From Parcubacteria group bacterium Gr01-1014_31 (lineage in GTDB: Bacteria > Patescibacteriota > Patescibacteriia > Buchananbacterales > GWA2-38-13): a DNA stretch of 64,000 nucleotides. The notes beneath the pieces were generated by a model that was not told the origin of the DNA, ran no database searches, and saw only the letters and a program-made list of their open reading frames with translations. The position numbers were made by a program, and so were the translations under genes. Of the stretch, positions 3,449 to 62,035 are shown one piece after another. Each line of letters opens with the position of its first letter. Positions within the stretch are counted from its first letter, which is position 1. The stretch is taken from assembly GCA_007376135.1 (NCBI GenBank), contig VMFR01000001.1, forward strand, positions 142,554 to 206,553. The letters run 5' to 3'.

Positions 3449-4324
3449 CTAGCGTCGTTGACCCGGGTGCAATATTTGGCTGACCCCTGCTAAAAGCAGG
3501 CTGAGCGGGAAAAGAGCCACGGCACATCCTGCCGCAAGTATTCCGTGGTGTTTCCGCAGATAGCGCACCAGGGAACGGTTGAATATCCATTGCCGTCGCA
3601 CCGATCGGATCTGCCCGAAACTCTGCCCTCCATGGTGGTTGACGCCGGCTTTGGCGCAGTACCATACCGGCAGCCCCTGGTCGTGTGCGCGCTTGCACCA
3701 GTCCACTTCCTCGAACCAAACGTGGAAATGCCCGTCCATTGGTCCAAGTTGCTGGAACGCCTTGCGGGTGATGAGAAAACAGGACCCGGCGACCTGCGGC
3801 GCTGGCTGGGTGGCCGAGTAGTCGAAATCCGCGGCGAAATAACGGGTGAACGTCGGCAGGCGCGGCAGCACGTGGTGGATCTTTGCCAGCAAAAGCAGCA
3901 GCGCCGGAACGGTCGGCAGTCCGCGAACGGATGGTTGTGGTCTGCCATCCAAGTGGTAATGCCGGGCGCCGACGATCGCAGCGCCGTGTTCACCAGCGCA
4001 ATCAACGAGAGTCGAAATGGCGAGCGGTTTCAACACCGTATCCGGGTTCAGGAGCAGCAGGTAGTCGCCGCGCGCTTGCTCGAACGCCAAATTATTGGCC
4101 CTGGCAAAACCCAGATTGTCGCCGGCAGCGATGACCCGCAGGTCAGTGATCTCGGAACGCAGGCGGTTGGCTATTTGCAAACTGCCATCTCCCGACGCAT
4201 TATCGACCACGATGATCTGGTCGCGGCAGTGTCCCAGCGCGCCGTTGATCGAGCGCAAACAGGCCTCCAGCACGCCGGCGCTGTTCCAGCTGACAATGAC
4301 GATGGTGACCAGCGGCCGTTCCAT
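3449..4324 (-). CDS. glycosyltransferase family 2
   Basis: N-terminal GT-A motif VTIVIVSWNSAGVLEACL...VVDNASGDGS. Start placed at MERPLVTIV. Confidence 0.8.
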   Translation of the reverse strand: MERPLVTIVIVSWNSAGVLEACLRSINGALGHCRDQIIVVDNASGDGSLQIANRLRSEITDLRVIAAGDNLGFARANNLAFEQARGDYLLLLNPDTVLKPLAISTLVDCAGEHGAAIVGARHYHLDGRPQPSVRGLPTVPALLLLLAKIHHVLPRLPTFTRYFAADFDYSATQPAPQVAGSCFLITRKAFQQLGPMDGHFHVWFEEVDWCKRAHDQGLPVWYCAKAGVNHHGGQSFGQIRSVRRQWIFNRSLVRYLRKHHGILAAGCAVALFPLSLLLAGVSQILHPGQRR

Positions 4325-31965: not shown

Positions 31966-31990
31966 CCGCTCCATCCTGGGGGGAAATCGA
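31966..31990 (-). pseudogene. tRNA-Gln 3'-fragment (T-arm and acceptor remnant)
   Basis: The minus strand reads ATGAAGGTTCGATTTCCCCCC. It matches the 3' part of the adjacent tRNA-Gln but carries a 3-nt deletion. Confidence 0.4.
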
Positions 31991-32007
31991 ACCTTCATAC
32001 TGGGCTC

Positions 32008-32103
32008 TCCCACACATTGCTGGGGGGGAAGGAATCGAACCTTCATTCGCAGCTCCAAAGGCTGCTGTCCTGCCATTAGACGACCCCCCAGCAATGTGTG
32101 GGA
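32008..32103 (-). repeat. 13-bp perfect inverted repeat (CCCACACATTGC.. / ..GCAATGTGTGGG) immediately flanking tRNA-Gln
   Basis: 32008-32020 is the exact reverse complement of 32091-32103; the two arms abut the tRNA ends. Confidence 0.7.
32020..32090 (-). tRNA. tRNA-Gln (anticodon UUG)
   Basis: Minus strand: TGGGGGG acceptor, D-arm, anticodon stem GCAGC/GCTGC with loop CTTTGGA, T-arm GAAGG-TTCGATT-CCTTC, CCCCCCA acceptor, discriminator G; CCA not encoded. Confidence 0.7.
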
Positions 32104-32199
32104 CCTTGCCCGACTCCGCGCCTGCCCCGTCGTATGACGGGGCCCTGTTTTACCCCACACCTTTCGACCTTAAATAGCAGAGCTACTTTGCTTGCCTAC

Positions 32200-32270
32200 C
32201 CGCGGGAGCAGAACTCGAATCTGGATTCACGGCTCCAAAGGCTGCTGTCCTGCCCTTAGACGATCCCGTA
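32200..32270 (-). pseudogene. degenerate tRNA-Gln(UUG) copy
   Basis: D-arm and anticodon arm are near-identical to tRNA-Gln. The acceptor, anticodon and T stems each carry one mismatch. No flanking inverted repeat. Confidence 0.4.
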
Positions 32271-32359
32271 GTTATGGAAGCGATAGTACTAAAGGTCAAA
32301 AGGTGTGGAGCGAGGACGACCCCCCCCAGGACGGGACGCAACGTCCACCGGTACCGGCA

Positions 32360-33561: not shown

Positions 33562-34244
33562 CTCAACCGATAGCGCCCAACCGCCTCATCGGAGGTCAGT
33601 GTGCCCTGATCAAGTACCAGCACACGGCGCCGGATCTGATTAACCCTCCCCTCGTCATGGCTGACAAACAGCACGGTCGTACCGATCTGGTTGATCTTCA
33701 GCAATAACTCGATGATCTCTTGCGAGGTGGCCGTATCCAGGTTGCCGGTCGGCTCATCCGCCACCAGGATCTTGGGACCGTGGGCGAGCGCCCGTGCGAT
33801 CGCGACGCGCTGCTGCTCGCCGCCGGAAAGGTGGCGCGGGAAACGGTCGTGCTTATCGGCCAACCCGACGATCTTGAGCACCTCGGGGACGATCTTGCGG
33901 ATACGCGAGGGGCGCGCTCCGATCACCTGCATCGCGAATGCGACATTCTCAAAAACGGTCTTCTTTTGCAATAATTTGTAATCCTGGAAAACGACACCGA
34001 TCTGCCGCCGAAGGTAAGGCACTTCACGAGACCGGATGTGCGTAATGTCCCAACCGCCGACGACCACCTGCCCTTCGCTCGCCCGCTCTTCGGCGGTCAG
34101 GATCTTGACCAGCGTGGTTTTTCCGGTGCCGCTCTTGCCAACGATCGAGATGAATTCACCCGCCAAAACCTCGAAAGAAACGTTGGCCAAAGCGACCGTG
34201 CGCTCAGGGAAATAGATTTTGGATACGTTGCGGAAGATGATCAT
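33558..34244 (-). CDS. ftsE: cell division ATP-binding protein FtsE
   Basis: ABC ATPase: [37 protein letters not shown]. Confidence 0.9.
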
Positions 34245-34266
34245 GGGTTTTGAGGAACGCGCACGG

Positions 34267-34296
34267 CTTGAAATTTCTACCCCAGCGTGCGTATAC
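34267..34296 (+). promoter_or_regulatory. sigma70 promoter TTGAAA-18-TATACT for the tRNA Gly/Thr cluster
   Basis: -35 TTGAAA (34267-34272) and -10 TATACT (34291-34296); a second TATACT follows 2 nt later. Confidence 0.5.
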
Positions 34297-34357
34297 TGGT
34301 ATACTGCTGTCCCAACGGCATCGGGTCAAGGGATAAGTCTATTCCCGGCCGCCACGC

Positions 34358-34395
34358 GCGGGATTAGTACCATGGTAGTACGTCGGCTTCCCTCG
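34358..34395 (+). pseudogene. tRNA-Gly-like 5' half (acceptor, D-arm, anticodon stem-loop start)
   Basis: GCGGGATTAGTACCATGGTAGTACGTCGGCTTCCC parallels the intact tRNA-Gly 5' half and then loses similarity. Confidence 0.4.
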
Positions 34396-34511
34396 CCCCT
34401 CACCTTTACGATTGGCTCTCTGCGGGTGTAGTACAGTGGTAGTATGCTAGCTTCCCAAGCTAGAGATGGGAGTTCGATTCTCCTCACCCGCTCCAGGTAA
34501 AGGTGTGGGGG
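34396..34511 (+). repeat. imperfect 14-bp inverted repeat (CCCCTCACCTTTAC / GTAAAGGTGTGGGGG) enclosing tRNA-Gly
   Basis: 34396-34409 against the reverse complement of 34497-34511, one mismatch. The repeat brackets the intact tRNA-Gly. Confidence 0.6.
34423..34495 (+). tRNA. tRNA-Gly (anticodon CCC)
   Basis: GCGGGTG acceptor, anticodon stem CTAGC/GCTAG with loop TTCCCAA, T-arm GGGAG-TTCGATT-CTCCT, discriminator U, CCA encoded. Confidence 0.8.
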
Positions 34512-34522
34512 CAAGCAAAAGA

Positions 34523-34548
34523 CGCGAGTTCGATTCTCGTATCCCGCT
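34523..34548 (+). pseudogene. tRNA 3' half (T-arm plus acceptor 3' strand ATCCCGC) complementary to the upstream 5' half
   Basis: GCGAG-TTCGATT-CTCGT-ATCCCGC-T; the acceptor strand is the exact complement of GCGGGAT at 34358. Confidence 0.4.
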
Positions 34549-34599
34549 CGCTGCCGCGGTTCGGCAGGATATTCGCGCGGTTGCCTTAGGCCGAAGTAC

Positions 34600-34703
34600 T
34601 TTCACATCTTGCCTTGCCGGAGTAGCTCAGCCGGTAGAGCAGTGCTTTCGTAAAGCAAAGGTCGAGGGTTCGAGTCCCTCCTCCGGCTTGGCAAGATGTG
34701 AAA
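34600..34703 (+). repeat. perfect 14-bp inverted repeat (TTTCACATCTTGCC / GGCAAGATGTGAAA) enclosing tRNA-Thr
   Basis: 34600-34613 is the exact reverse complement of 34690-34703. The arms lie 2 nt and 1 nt from the tRNA ends. Confidence 0.7.
34616..34688 (+). tRNA. tRNA-Thr (anticodon CGU)
   Basis: GCCGGAG acceptor, D-arm GCTC/GAGC, anticodon stem GTGCT/AGCAA with loop TTCGTAA, T-arm GAGGG-TTCGAGT-CCCTC, CTCCGGC acceptor, discriminator U. Confidence 0.75.
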
Positions 34704-34884
34704 GATGCCGATCATTGTGGGTTTCCCGCCGTTCTCCTCTTTCGGTTATTGAAATATAGGGAGGAGGGACCCCGCCGACGGCGGTGGCGACTCCCACCTT
34801 CGGCTCCAGACAACTCCGTAAATAGGAAAGATCGGCGCCCGCAGCAGCCGATTTTTCATATCCGCTGCCCTCCGGAAACTGGAA

Positions 34885-36105
34885 CTACGGCGCGTACCGG
34901 TGGATGTTCATGCTGCGCAGGATCTCCCCCAGCCGTTGTTCAAAATAGTCGACCGGGGTCACGGTGATCACGCGTAGCCGCAGCCGCAGGTCGCTCCCCT
35001 CCCCGACCGATTCCTCGCGCAACAGCAGCACATACCCTTGGGCGGTGCGCATCGGCGGCGATACCTCCCCGTCCGAAATCTTTTCCGCCGCGGCAAAGAT
35101 CTGAACATCAAGGTCGTCGCGGCCGCGATACCCCAAATCTCCGCCAATTGCACGGCTATCATCGCGATTCACCTCGCTCGCGGTCGCCGCGAAACTGCTG
35201 GCGCCCTCCGCGAGCGACTGATGGATGGATTTGAGCCGTACGGCGGCCGCTTCCCAGGCCTGCGGGTCTTCCCAGAGCTTGGCGCGGACCGCGAGCTCCA
35301 GCAGGTAGGGCCTTACCAAGCGCTCGGAAAAATCATCCAACGACCAACCATAAAAATTCTCCCGCACGCTCTGCTCAAGCCGCTCCCTCGATCCGCTCTG
35401 CGCGATCAACTGCTGCAACTGCGCGTTCACGGCGGCTGCACCGACCTGCACCTGGTACTGTTCGGCCAGGCGGTCGATCGCCGCCTGCCCGACGAAACGA
35501 GTAAATGCCTGCCGCCGCAGTTCACCGTCGCCTTGCGGTCTGCCGGTCCGCACCGATGACCGCCGCAGCATTTCCACGTCGCGCAAATAATCATCCAGCC
35601 AGTATACCCGACCGTCGGCGTCCACGGCGGGGAGCGGCAGGACCCTCGCCAGCGCCGCCACGGCCCAGTTGCTCCAGCCGAATCGGTACGCGCCGACCAG
35701 AACTACGGCGAACAACATGGTTACGAGCGCAGCAAAAATCGACACGGCCAAAAGAGGAGTCCGCCGCCGTCTCTTGGCGGTTTGTGCCGGCCGCCGCGGC
35801 GGTCGGGTCGCTCTCCTTGCTCTTCCCGGCGGCAGCGCCAAAGGAAGCCTCGGGATGATCAACTTCAGCGCACGTGGAACCGACTTTTGCGGCGGAGCGG
35901 CCGCAGCCGCTGCGGTGGTAGTCGTTTTCTTTTTTGGACGCGTCGGGCGCTTGGGTACGCTCGCCTTGACCGCCGACGGCGCGGGCTTGCCGGCAACGAT
36001 CTTGGGGCGTTGCCGGTCCCGCTCGATCCACGCCAGCACCTCACGCCGCATCGCCGACAGTTCGTTTTCGGAAAATGTTTTTCCGTTCGAGGATAGATCG
36101 GGCAT
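34885..36105 (-). CDS. membrane-anchored PpiC/parvulin-type peptidyl-prolyl isomerase (PrsA/SurA-like)
   Basis: Basic, P/A-rich N-terminus, one TM (LLAVSIFAALVTMLFAVVLVGAY), and the parvulin signature GGDLGYRGRDDLDVQIFAAAEKISDGEVSPPMRTAQGYVLLL. Confidence 0.55.
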   Translation of the reverse strand: MPDLSSNGKTFSENELSAMRREVLAWIERDRQRPKIVAGKPAPSAVKASVPKRPTRPKKKTTTTAAAAAAPPQKSVPRALKLIIPRLPLALPPGRARRATRPPRRPAQTAKRRRRTPLLAVSIFAALVTMLFAVVLVGAYRFGWSNWAVAALARVLPLPAVDADGRVYWLDDYLRDVEMLRRSSVRTGRPQGDGELRRQAFTRFVGQAAIDRLAEQYQVQVGAAAVNAQLQQLIAQSGSRERLEQSVRENFYGWSLDDFSERLVRPYLLELAVRAKLWEDPQAWEAAAVRLKSIHQSLAEGASSFAATASEVNRDDSRAIGGDLGYRGRDDLDVQIFAAAEKISDGEVSPPMRTAQGYVLLLREESVGEGSDLRLRLRVITVTPVDYFEQRLGEILRSMNIHRYAP

Positions 36106-61584: not shown

Positions 61585-61595
61585 TTTTCCGCTGT

Positions 61596-62030
61596 GGATA
61601 GCCAGGCGGTCGCTCCGATACACAATCGGAGAGGAAAGTCCGAACACCCTGGTTGTCAATTGACAATCTGTCGCGGTAGTGGGTAACGCCCACCCGGGCC
61701 GCAGCAATGCGGCTTGAGGACCAGTTCCACAGAGACCATACTAACCCCGAAGGGGTTATCCCGAGCGACGCCCGCAAGGGCGGAGTCGAGGGATCTCCCA
61801 TTCAGGGCAAAACGTGAAAAGTGTGGCGAGGTCATTGGCTACAAGTGGGAATTCCCGGTAGCTGACGGCTACGCTACTCCGCGCCCAGCGATGGGACGCG
61901 CGTGGTAAACTCTACCTGGTGCAATGCCAAGTTTGGTCGGCAGCATGAGGCCGCCAGCAATGACGGTCCCAGAGAGATGATCGCCACCCGCCTTCGGCGG
62001 GGACAGAATTCGGCTTACCGGCTATCTGCA
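61596..62030 (+). ncRNA. rnpB: RNase P RNA (bacterial type A)
   Basis: P4 hallmark GAGGAAAGTCCG, the 3' ACAGAATTCGGCTTA element, P1 pairing GGATAGCCAGG/CCGGCTATC, and GGTAACGCC (P6/P7 region). Confidence 0.8.
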
Positions 62031-62035
62031 GCAAT

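Follow-up and report, generated by a model that had tools for sequence, protein, structure and literature searches.

In the analysed stretch of Parcubacteria group bacterium Gr01-1014_31 (64,000 nucleotides of contig VMFR01000001.1, positions 142,554 to 206,553; hereafter the window), a complete tRNA-Gly(CCC) gene lies between the two halves of a second tRNA-Gly(CCC) gene. The arrangement is probably the work of a mobile cassette, bounded by an inverted repeat (IR), that broke the resident tRNA gene and brought a replacement with it, rather than a tRNA that still functions by splicing or as two pieces. The locus is apparently one instance of a recurrent and undescribed strategy in which a small palindrome-ended cassette breaks a tRNA gene and carries the substitute.

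Layout of the nested tRNA-Gly locus

Both outer pieces are direct repeats of the inner tRNA (repeat finder; 77% identity over positions 1-35 and 82% over positions 35-72) and hence make up a single tRNA-Gly(CCC) gene that is interrupted directly behind its anticodon. An earlier note on this DNA, written from the letters alone, had described an outer pair of half-tRNAs; both are present within a few bases of where it placed them, except that the 3' half begins at 34513 and not at 34523. All features of this locus lie on the forward strand. The 5' half (34358-34392), delimited by sequence reading, the repeat finder, and ARAGORN, comprises tRNA positions 1-36 and reads GCGGGAT-TA-GTAC-CATGGTA-GTAC-G-TCGGC-TT-CCC, which resolves into the GCGGGAT acceptor strand, the D arm, the 5' strand of the anticodon stem (TCGGC), and the loop bases TT followed by the anticodon CCC as its last bases. 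The 3' half (34513-34548), delimited in the same three ways, reads AA-GCAAA-AGAC-GCGAG-TTCGATT-CTCGT-ATCCCGC-T and supplies A37 and A38, the 3' strand of the anticodon stem (GCAAA), the variable region AGAC, the T arm, the ATCCCGC strand, and the discriminator T.

An insert of approximately 120 bp (34393-34512) separates the halves directly after the anticodon; 74 bp of it are tRNA and about 45 nt are not, so that no open reading frame (ORF) is possible. The insert opens with the junction TCG (34393-34395; sequence reading) and the left IR arm CCCCTCACCTTTAC (34396-34409), which ends the cassette on this side and departs at one position from the family motif CCCC[A/G]CACCTTT. A 12-nt leader (34410-34421; sequence reading), a spacing also found in the cassette of the relative L006 described below, precedes the inner tRNA-Gly(CCC) (34422-34495), which encodes its CCA, has a GCGGGTG acceptor, and is presumed to be the working gene. 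The complete tRNA-Gly(CCC) that the earlier note had read between the halves was placed there as an intact gene by both ARAGORN, which called Gly(CCC), and Rfam (RF00005, 69.9 bits; gathering threshold, 29). A single G separates this gene from the right IR arm GTAAAGGTGTGGGG (34497-34510; repeat finder), and GC separates that arm from the outer 3' half. The 14-bp inverted repeat that the earlier note gave around the inner tRNA was recovered by the repeat finder as 14 nt with 93% complementarity.

When 34393-34512 was removed in silico, ARAGORN called the joined halves as tRNA-Gly(CCC) with 2 of the 5 anticodon-stem pairs mismatched; the same operation on the relatives L002 and L005 gave a perfect tRNA-Gly(CCC). 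With introns allowed, ARAGORN did not call the outer gene in place and returned spurious low-score calls only. The minimum free energy fold of 34358-34549 is the nested structure itself: the outer halves pair, as the earlier note had proposed, and form acceptor, D, and T arms around the IR helix and the cloverleaf of the inner tRNA (-74.6 kcal/mol; z = -3.2; 0 of 200 shuffles as stable). Upstream of the outer 5' half, a scan placed a promoter-like site, TTGAAA-18-TATACT (34268-34297; 10/12 matches). Up to 34688 it was the sole site of this kind, hence there is none between the outer half and the inner tRNA, and a scan of 34200-34900 found no terminator-like site. With one promoter-like site upstream and none inside, the structured polycistronic precursor suggested in the earlier note is a probable consequence of the arrangement but not the reason for it.

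The ftsE locus in relatives and the identity of the resident gene

The nested genes lie upstream of ftsE, and the FtsE protein of the window was also found on four other metagenome contigs (metagenome loci are given L numbers throughout). Its identity is 98% to the metagenome-assembled genome (MAG) L005, 83% to the Patescibacteria MAG L006, and ~65% to many Candidatus Uhrbacteria. The organism is a patescibacterium close to Candidatus Uhrbacteria. The usual state upstream of ftsE, seen at ~30 related loci, is one tRNA-Gly(CCC) beside one tRNA-Thr(CGT), and uninterrupted genes include the plain tRNA-Gly of L012 and of Uhrbacteria as well as the plain tRNA-Thr of L006. Six independent assemblies, the window and L001-L005, come from different projects and show the nested layout in identical or near-identical form. 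This agreement makes an assembly or chimera artefact hardly credible, even though the contig is of metagenomic source and its repeats are of a kind able to mislead assemblers.

The near-identical contigs L002-L004 show the same nesting; their outer anticodon stem is perfect, with GCCGA where the window has GCAAA, and their repeat differs from that of the window at three positions. The left IR arm in L002-L005 is CCCCACACCTTTAC. L005 shares the 5' half, the left arm, and the inner tRNA, and ~100 nt of additional DNA interrupt its right arm. The outer tRNA-Gly of L006 consists of positions 1-53 and 63-73, with the T loop gone and 9 nt lost; there, outer positions 1-53 lead into a related arm CCCCACACCATTC, after which come a 12-nt leader, a complete tRNA-Gly, and the second arm, and all that follows of the outer 3' end is CGTATCCCGCT. 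The Gly breakpoint varies in this way from the anticodon loop (after position 36) in the window to 53/63 in L006, and there is none in L012 or most Uhrbacteria. Simple tandem tRNA-Gly pairs, which the earlier note had named as the pattern that would contradict it, were looked for in relatives and were absent: the relatives have either a single plain gene or a nested arrangement, broken as in the window or elsewhere in the gene.

Comparison with the relatives indicates which of the two genes was there first. Joined in its L002 version, the outer gene has 96% identity to L006's working tRNA-Gly, 89% to that of L012, and 81% to that of L007, and it has in common with these three genes, found at the same site upstream of ftsE, the GCGGGAT acceptor. 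The outer 5' half matches the 5' part of the L006 outer copy at 35/35 positions and the L006 working gene at 34/35. The inner gene is of another type, with its GCGGGTG acceptor and a CTAGC anticodon stem; it is 74-77% identical to the tRNA-Gly genes of L006, L012, and L007, and across the tRNA-Gly genes of relatives its identity ranges from 69 to 85%, 85% being the best in the comparison set. Judged by these identities, the outer gene is the resident of ancestral type and the inner gene is a newcomer of a different, seemingly foreign, sequence type.

The two genes also differ in how they have changed between the window and L005. Identical positions number 263/300 in ftsE, 102/113 in the flanking non-coding promoter region, and 66/71 in the outer halves (32/36 in the 3' half alone), against 147/147 in the inner tRNA-Gly together with the inner tRNA-Thr of the neighboring cassette (see below). 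The inner tRNA-Gly is likewise identical at 74/74 positions in L002 and L005. The difference between outer and inner divergence in the window-L005 counts is significant (one-sided Fisher test, p ~0.003), and therefore the outer halves appear to drift at roughly the non-coding rate; constraint on them seems relaxed, unlike that on the other tRNAs, in a test that rests on five substitutions. In the window strain, the outer anticodon stem is mismatched at two positions (GCAAA vs TCGGC).

Some further features of these relatives were recorded. L005 contains, at 3890-3490 on the minus strand, two stacked tRNA-Gly 5' halves, each ending right after the anticodon CCC; the upstream one is degenerate, and a tRNA-Thr D-arm fragment is fused upstream. 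In L002-L004, the right junction of the Gly cassette has the 12-mer CAAGCCGAAGAC, which also flanks a plain member of the repeat family described below, at L143 3278-3379 and L156 7637-7738. Just upstream of the 3' remnant of the tRNA-Thr, L002-L004 have a palindromic GC-rich segment of 36 nt that is absent from the window (~34770; alignment columns 532-567).

Recurrence of nesting and the repeat family

Nesting affects three of the four tRNA genes in the window (Gly, Thr, and Gln). Downstream of the Gly locus, on the forward strand, a remnant of the resident tRNA-Thr(CGT) comprising positions 1-9, GCCGAAGTA (34590-34598), was recognized by alignment with the intact tRNA-Thr of L006, with the conserved leader GCCTTAG just before it. 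A second cassette follows at 34599-34704, consisting of a 15-bp IR (34599-34613 and 34690-34704; repeat finder) around an intact tRNA-Thr(CGT) (34616-34688; ARAGORN). The 22-nt 3' remnant of the resident gene, CGACTCCCACCTTCGGCTCCAG (34788-34809), is identical to the 3' end of the L006 gene. The cassette tRNA-Thr is of a different type from the resident one and is identical at 73/73 positions in L002 and L005.

The tRNA-Gln locus (31975-32328, minus strand) has the same nested architecture according to ARAGORN and repeat and fragment searches. Between a 5' fragment (32328-32315) and a 3' fragment (31998-31975) of the resident tRNA-Gln, both located by fragment search, lie a degenerate tRNA-Gln copy (Gln'), bounded by the IR arms CTCCACACCTTT/AAAGGTGTGGGG (32310-32299 and 32164-32153; repeat search), and an intact tRNA-Gln (32090-32019; ARAGORN), bounded by the IR arms CCCACACATTGC/GCAATGTGTGGG (32102-32091 and 32020-32009; repeat search), all on the minus strand. 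Two IR-bounded units between the fragments of a third tRNA-Gln suggest serial replacement. The left junction of the Gly cassette, CTCG followed by C(C/T)CC, recurs at the Gln' cassette, and the motif CCCACACNTT has four matches in the window against 0.42 expected, all at tRNA flanks.

The same topology was found far from this lineage. In L043, a distant Parcubacteria genome, positions 1-21 of a tRNA-Thr precede an entire tRNA-Thr that has CCCCGCACCTTTT before it and AAAAGGTGCGGGG behind it, and what is left of the old anticodon loop comes last. Further nested cases occur in L051, L023, L125, L093, L095, L122, and L172, and the match between cargo and fragment holds to the anticodon where it is readable (Val-GAC in L095, Val-TAC in L122, Arg-TCG in L172, and Met in L125). 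In a survey of 184 tRNAs, cognate fragments were present in the flanks of 22 of the 46 tRNAs with a flanking IR of at least 9 and of 13 of the 138 without one; upstream fragments were nearly all 5' parts, downstream fragments nearly all 3' parts, and the breakpoints fell mostly in the D, anticodon, and T loops. Other repeat families also bracket nested tRNAs, such as CCTGCCCGCC in L051 and L023.

A second repeat family, CCTGCC(C/T)GCC / GGC(G/A)GGCAGG, surrounds nested tRNA-Thr genes in Kerfeldbacteria and other members of the Candidate Phyla Radiation (CPR), at L051 686-760, L023 2823-2896, and L036 2959-3034. In L036, a bare 20-nt hairpin interrupts the D loop of the old tRNA-Thr, and an intact copy lies ~60 nt downstream. 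Two outer remnants carry, in the T loop, a further insertion of the repeat family described in the next paragraph, at L095 ~2760 (Val; GCAGGTT followed by TACCCCGCC) and L088 ~6170 (Lys; CAGGTTTGT followed by CCCCGCACC), and dead outer tRNA copies apparently keep collecting elements.

The IR of the Gly cassette belongs to a family that reaches well beyond tRNA genes. The pattern CCCCRCACCTTT-N70-100-AAAGGTGYGGGG was found at no fewer than 120 metagenome loci; the statistics given here cover 121 copies among the matches listed from the metagenome scan. The arms covary at the variable base (G-C in 96 copies, A-T in 18, mismatched in 7), so that 114 of 121 copies are paired. Exact 4-bp direct repeats flank 39 of the 121 copies (TCAA in 15, TTGA in 11, TAAA in 6), compared with a mean of 6 and a maximum of 14 expected from shuffled pairings. 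A tRNA is contained in 13 copies (Val, Arg, Ile, Glu, Thr, and Ser), and the other ~108 hold unrelated sequence. Copies with a tRNA lie for the most part within a cognate tRNA gene that they break into fragments. The tRNA-bearing copies share asymmetric junction bases, CYYG before the initial CCCC and TGAAR after the final GGGG or the reverse complement of these, whichever loop they occupy.

Plain copies often lie exactly on TTGACA -35 boxes; those in L098, L111, L119, L123, L125, and others sit on TTGACA with a TTGA or TCAA duplication and leave an intact -35/-10 pair downstream. Two copies lie within 16S rRNA genes (L203 2695-2804 and L121 1992-2101), where they presumably replace the helix-40 hairpin with a long hairpin of ~110 nt, an assignment made by comparing the ACTG...AGGAAGG context with the E. 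coli sequence. A terminal IR of at least 10 bp around a short ORF-less insert and target duplications at the family level were both found, as in MITEs (miniature transposable elements with inverted repeats). On these sequence features, the copies carry what is recognizably the signature of a short non-autonomous DNA transposon family.

A search of 1.45 Mb of fetched loci for pairs of terminal repeats 300-4000 bp apart around an ORF found none, and a 971-bp candidate for an autonomous element in L104 was rejected as a chance match inside a membrane-protein gene. With Rfam at permissive E values, neither the Gly locus nor a plain member of the family matched a known ribozyme, intron, or small RNA, and only chance matches of microRNA type were returned. 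In one subfamily (L086, L089, L091, L104, L111, and L121), the elements have the internal motif GGCGAAGCCGCCTAxCGGCTC with a covarying pair that closes a GCGAAGC-type mini-hairpin; this motif has no Rfam match. At L109 ~3980-4105, bare 36-nt hairpin units (GTAAACCCCCACACCTTTTAAAAAAGGTGTCTAGG) occur in tandem with no cargo inside. The RNase P RNA match in the window (61594-62033; 145 bits) spans 440 nt against a model of 367 positions and thus contains sizeable insertions.

Weighing of the explanations and comparison with known systems

The option of an outer split tRNA with an inserted tRNA, as the earlier note put it, is right at the DNA level only: a resident gene is interrupted by an IR-bounded insert with a second tRNA-Gly. 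That the outer tRNA works, with the insert spliced out as an intron or the halves kept paired by the IR as a two-piece tRNA like those of Nanoarchaeum, we consider very unlikely. The insert adjoins the canonical intron position in the anticodon loop, the halves of L002-L005 form a perfect cloverleaf once it is removed, and the predicted fold holds the halves together. The halves of archaeal split tRNAs carry complementary leader sequences, which the IR after the 5' half and before the 3' half resembles. However, manual inspection in both registers, in the window and in L002, found no bulge-helix-bulge (BHB): what joins the anticodon stem to the IR helix is a 7 x 2 internal loop. Rfam gave neither a group I intron nor any other intron family in 34300-34850 at the gathering threshold or at E values up to 5, and the intron mode of ARAGORN makes no call of the outer gene. 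A K-turn was also looked for by hand at the junctions, and none was found. A working outer gene is also hard to reconcile with the extra 100-nt insertion in the right arm of L005, with a redundant tRNA of the same anticodon sitting inside, and with remnants that have lost the T loop (L006) or most of the tRNA body (Thr and Gln in the window). The outer halves are most likely non-functional because the breakpoint is not conserved, they drift near the non-coding rate, two substitutions break the anticodon stem in the window strain, and no BHB or group I signal is present.

Two other explanations dispense with a mobile cassette, and both appear unlikely to us. One is a local origin, by tandem triplication or in-situ duplication followed by deletions, in which the IR is the native leader-trailer stem of the middle copy. 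It accounts for halves that are direct repeats of the inner gene, for the near-identity of the inner and outer copies of L006, as after a recent duplication, and for L036, where a disrupted copy followed by an intact one departs from strict nesting. Nevertheless, in-situ duplication predicts the reverse of what was seen, since the decaying outer gene matches the working gene of relatives and the conserved inner gene is the divergent one; two independent deletions must also have ended at the same anticodon-loop nucleotide, and the topology is found again at Thr, at Gln, and in genomes that are distant, where the repeat is a common one and also encloses inserts that hold no tRNA and have target duplications. 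Duplication and deletion, which the earlier note had offered as an option, was abandoned on the grounds that the inner gene is of a different sequence type and that the IR family occurs at 120 or more unrelated loci. The other explanation takes the IRs for ordinary processing stems of the RNase III type and the fragments for debris of horizontal transfer and illegitimate recombination at tRNA genes. Leader-trailer repeats at three of the four window tRNAs, some of them abutting the mature ends exactly, would fit such stems, as would the covarying arms, the IR-flanked tRNAs without surrounding fragments, and the absence of target duplications around tRNA-bearing copies. Processing stems do not explain why the tRNAs of most related genomes are plain and lack them, why the same repeat encloses ~108 inserts that hold no tRNA, is found on -35 boxes and within 16S rRNA, and has 4-bp duplications, or why L005 lost intact pairing with its inner tRNA unchanged; moreover, the fragments are strongly associated with the repeats, and the topology is nearly always nested.

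Replacement by a mobile cassette, the reading that we prefer, would begin with an insert of ~120 bp, bounded by an IR of 14-15 bp, entering the anticodon loop of the original tRNA-Gly(CCC) just after the anticodon. The insertion would destroy the resident gene, and the cargo tRNA-Gly(CCC) of the other sequence type would take over, leaving the cell viable and the cassette impossible to lose. Having no promoter of its own, the cassette would share a transcript, started at the resident promoter, with the two dead halves and with the tRNA-Thr cassette that lies downstream. The IR helix would pair leader with trailer and make the inner tRNA its own folding domain, shielded from outer halves that are 77-82% similar to it, and RNase P and 3' trimming would then free the inner tRNA, perhaps once RNase III has cut the IR stem. 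In general, such elements may insert preferentially into tRNA and rRNA hairpin loops, and only insertions into a gene replaceable by the cargo would survive and become fixed.

Several observations weigh against this account. No target-site duplication was found at the Gly cassette (flanks CTCG and GCAA) or at the other tRNA-bearing copies, and tRNA-bearing copies may have been inserted by a reaction different from that of plain copies. No transposase or other enzyme with the family ends was found in the fetched loci, and the family pattern had 0 matches in viral contigs. About half of the IR-flanked tRNAs have no recognizable outer fragments, a state compatible with insertion elsewhere or with older events. 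Since the ~100-nt insertion that splits the right arm of L005 has left the inner tRNA unchanged, expression does not strictly require IR pairing. In L006, the inner tRNA-Gly is of the same type as the outer one, a better fit to in-situ origin or gene conversion than to a foreign cassette. The small number of substitutions behind the divergence test of the outer halves (five) counts on this side as well, and the outer gene of L002-L005 is still structurally perfect, which is predicted by recency and equally by function.

How a cassette finds its cognate gene is a separate matter. It seems improbable that the cargo tRNA or its DNA guides insertion into the loops of the cognate gene, as a selfish element homing to the gene that it can replace. 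Guided homing, if true, would mean serial replacement of single-copy CPR tRNA genes by a nucleic-acid-guided system of ~120 bp needing only host or trans-acting factors. Homologous recombination was rejected as an unlikely insertion route, given that the inner and outer genes are only 77-82% identical and that 5 nt separate the junction from the nearest preceding difference between the two types. In-situ DNA schemes (long staggered cuts, hairpin-loop capture, and unequal exchange between copies) were considered as well, but the nested topology could not be derived from them. A reading in which the CYYG/TGAAR junctions arise by duplication of 2 bp of a T-loop target, TTCAAG, was also rejected, as the D-loop and anticodon-loop cases do not fit it.

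Replacement cassettes of this kind would explain how tRNA genes are swapped for foreign versions in the streamlined genomes of CPR bacteria. They would also provide a ratchet that makes a tiny element indispensable. The tRNA fragments and odd precursors that result will be miscalled by annotation pipelines. The cassette may also represent a naturally occurring tRNA expression unit that insulates itself and has no promoter, and it would join three CPR topics that have been treated separately, namely, rRNA gene insertions, palindromic repeats, and the turnover of tRNA genes.

Correia/NEMIS elements of Neisseria, Rickettsia palindromic elements, and the intervening sequences (IVS) of rRNA genes, which are processed by RNase III, are short palindromic elements in transcribed or structural-RNA genes. 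The plain copies of the present family resemble these and other bacterial MITEs in size (~100-125 bp), terminal IRs, lack of an ORF, high copy number, and short target duplications. The plain copies also resemble MITEs and IVS in their location in promoters and at rRNA helix tips, where they form a long hairpin in the transcript. The tRNA-bearing copies differ from the named elements in carrying a whole tRNA as cargo, in lying within the cognate gene, and in lacking target duplications; no Correia/NEMIS element, Rickettsia palindromic element, or IVS is known to contain a complete tRNA gene or to lie inside a cognate tRNA gene. Short IVS-type inserts, probably cleaved by RNase III, have been described in CPR 23S rRNA (PMC11270868).

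Like temperate phages, integrative and conjugative elements (ICEs), and genomic islands, the Gly cassette inserts in a tRNA gene and keeps function with sequence that the element brings. Phages, ICEs, and islands, however, are kilobases long, encode an integrase, restore the gene with a partial 3' copy, and leave a direct repeat at the far end, whereas the Gly cassette is ~120 bp long, has no ORF, holds a whole tRNA within inverted rather than direct repeats, and leaves the resident gene as two dead halves. Sequence-specific insertion within the genes of tRNAs and other small RNAs is also a trait of the eukaryotic Dada DNA transposons (Kojima and Jurka 2013, PMC3706591). In contrast to the cassettes, Dada elements are autonomous, with a DDE transposase and target duplications of 6-7 bp, and they are tolerated through multicopy targets and carry no replacement; the CPR tRNA genes at the loci studied here appear to be single copy.

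Disrupted tRNA genes of archaea include BHB introns at many positions, intron transposition in Thermoproteales, and the split tRNAs of Nanoarchaeum (PMC4390854). The CPR loci are similar in that D, anticodon, and T loops are interrupted by related short hairpin-forming inserts, with complementary sequence beside the halves. They are dissimilar in the bacterial host (type A RNase P RNA and FtsEX), the lack of a BHB, the decay of the halves, and the redundant full tRNA in the insert. Group I introns occur in the anticodon loops of bacterial tRNAs (tRNA-Leu, fMet, Arg, and Ile). The Gly insert shares this anticodon-loop location and differs in having no group I core, only ~45 nt of non-tRNA sequence, and a position that is not conserved. 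A literature search found no description of IR-bounded tRNA cassettes or of nested cognate tRNA genes in bacteria, an absence of evidence within the literature searched. Mobile DNA normally avoids essential single-copy genes or splices itself out of them. The cassettes described here appear to use a third solution, in which a working copy of the broken gene is brought along.

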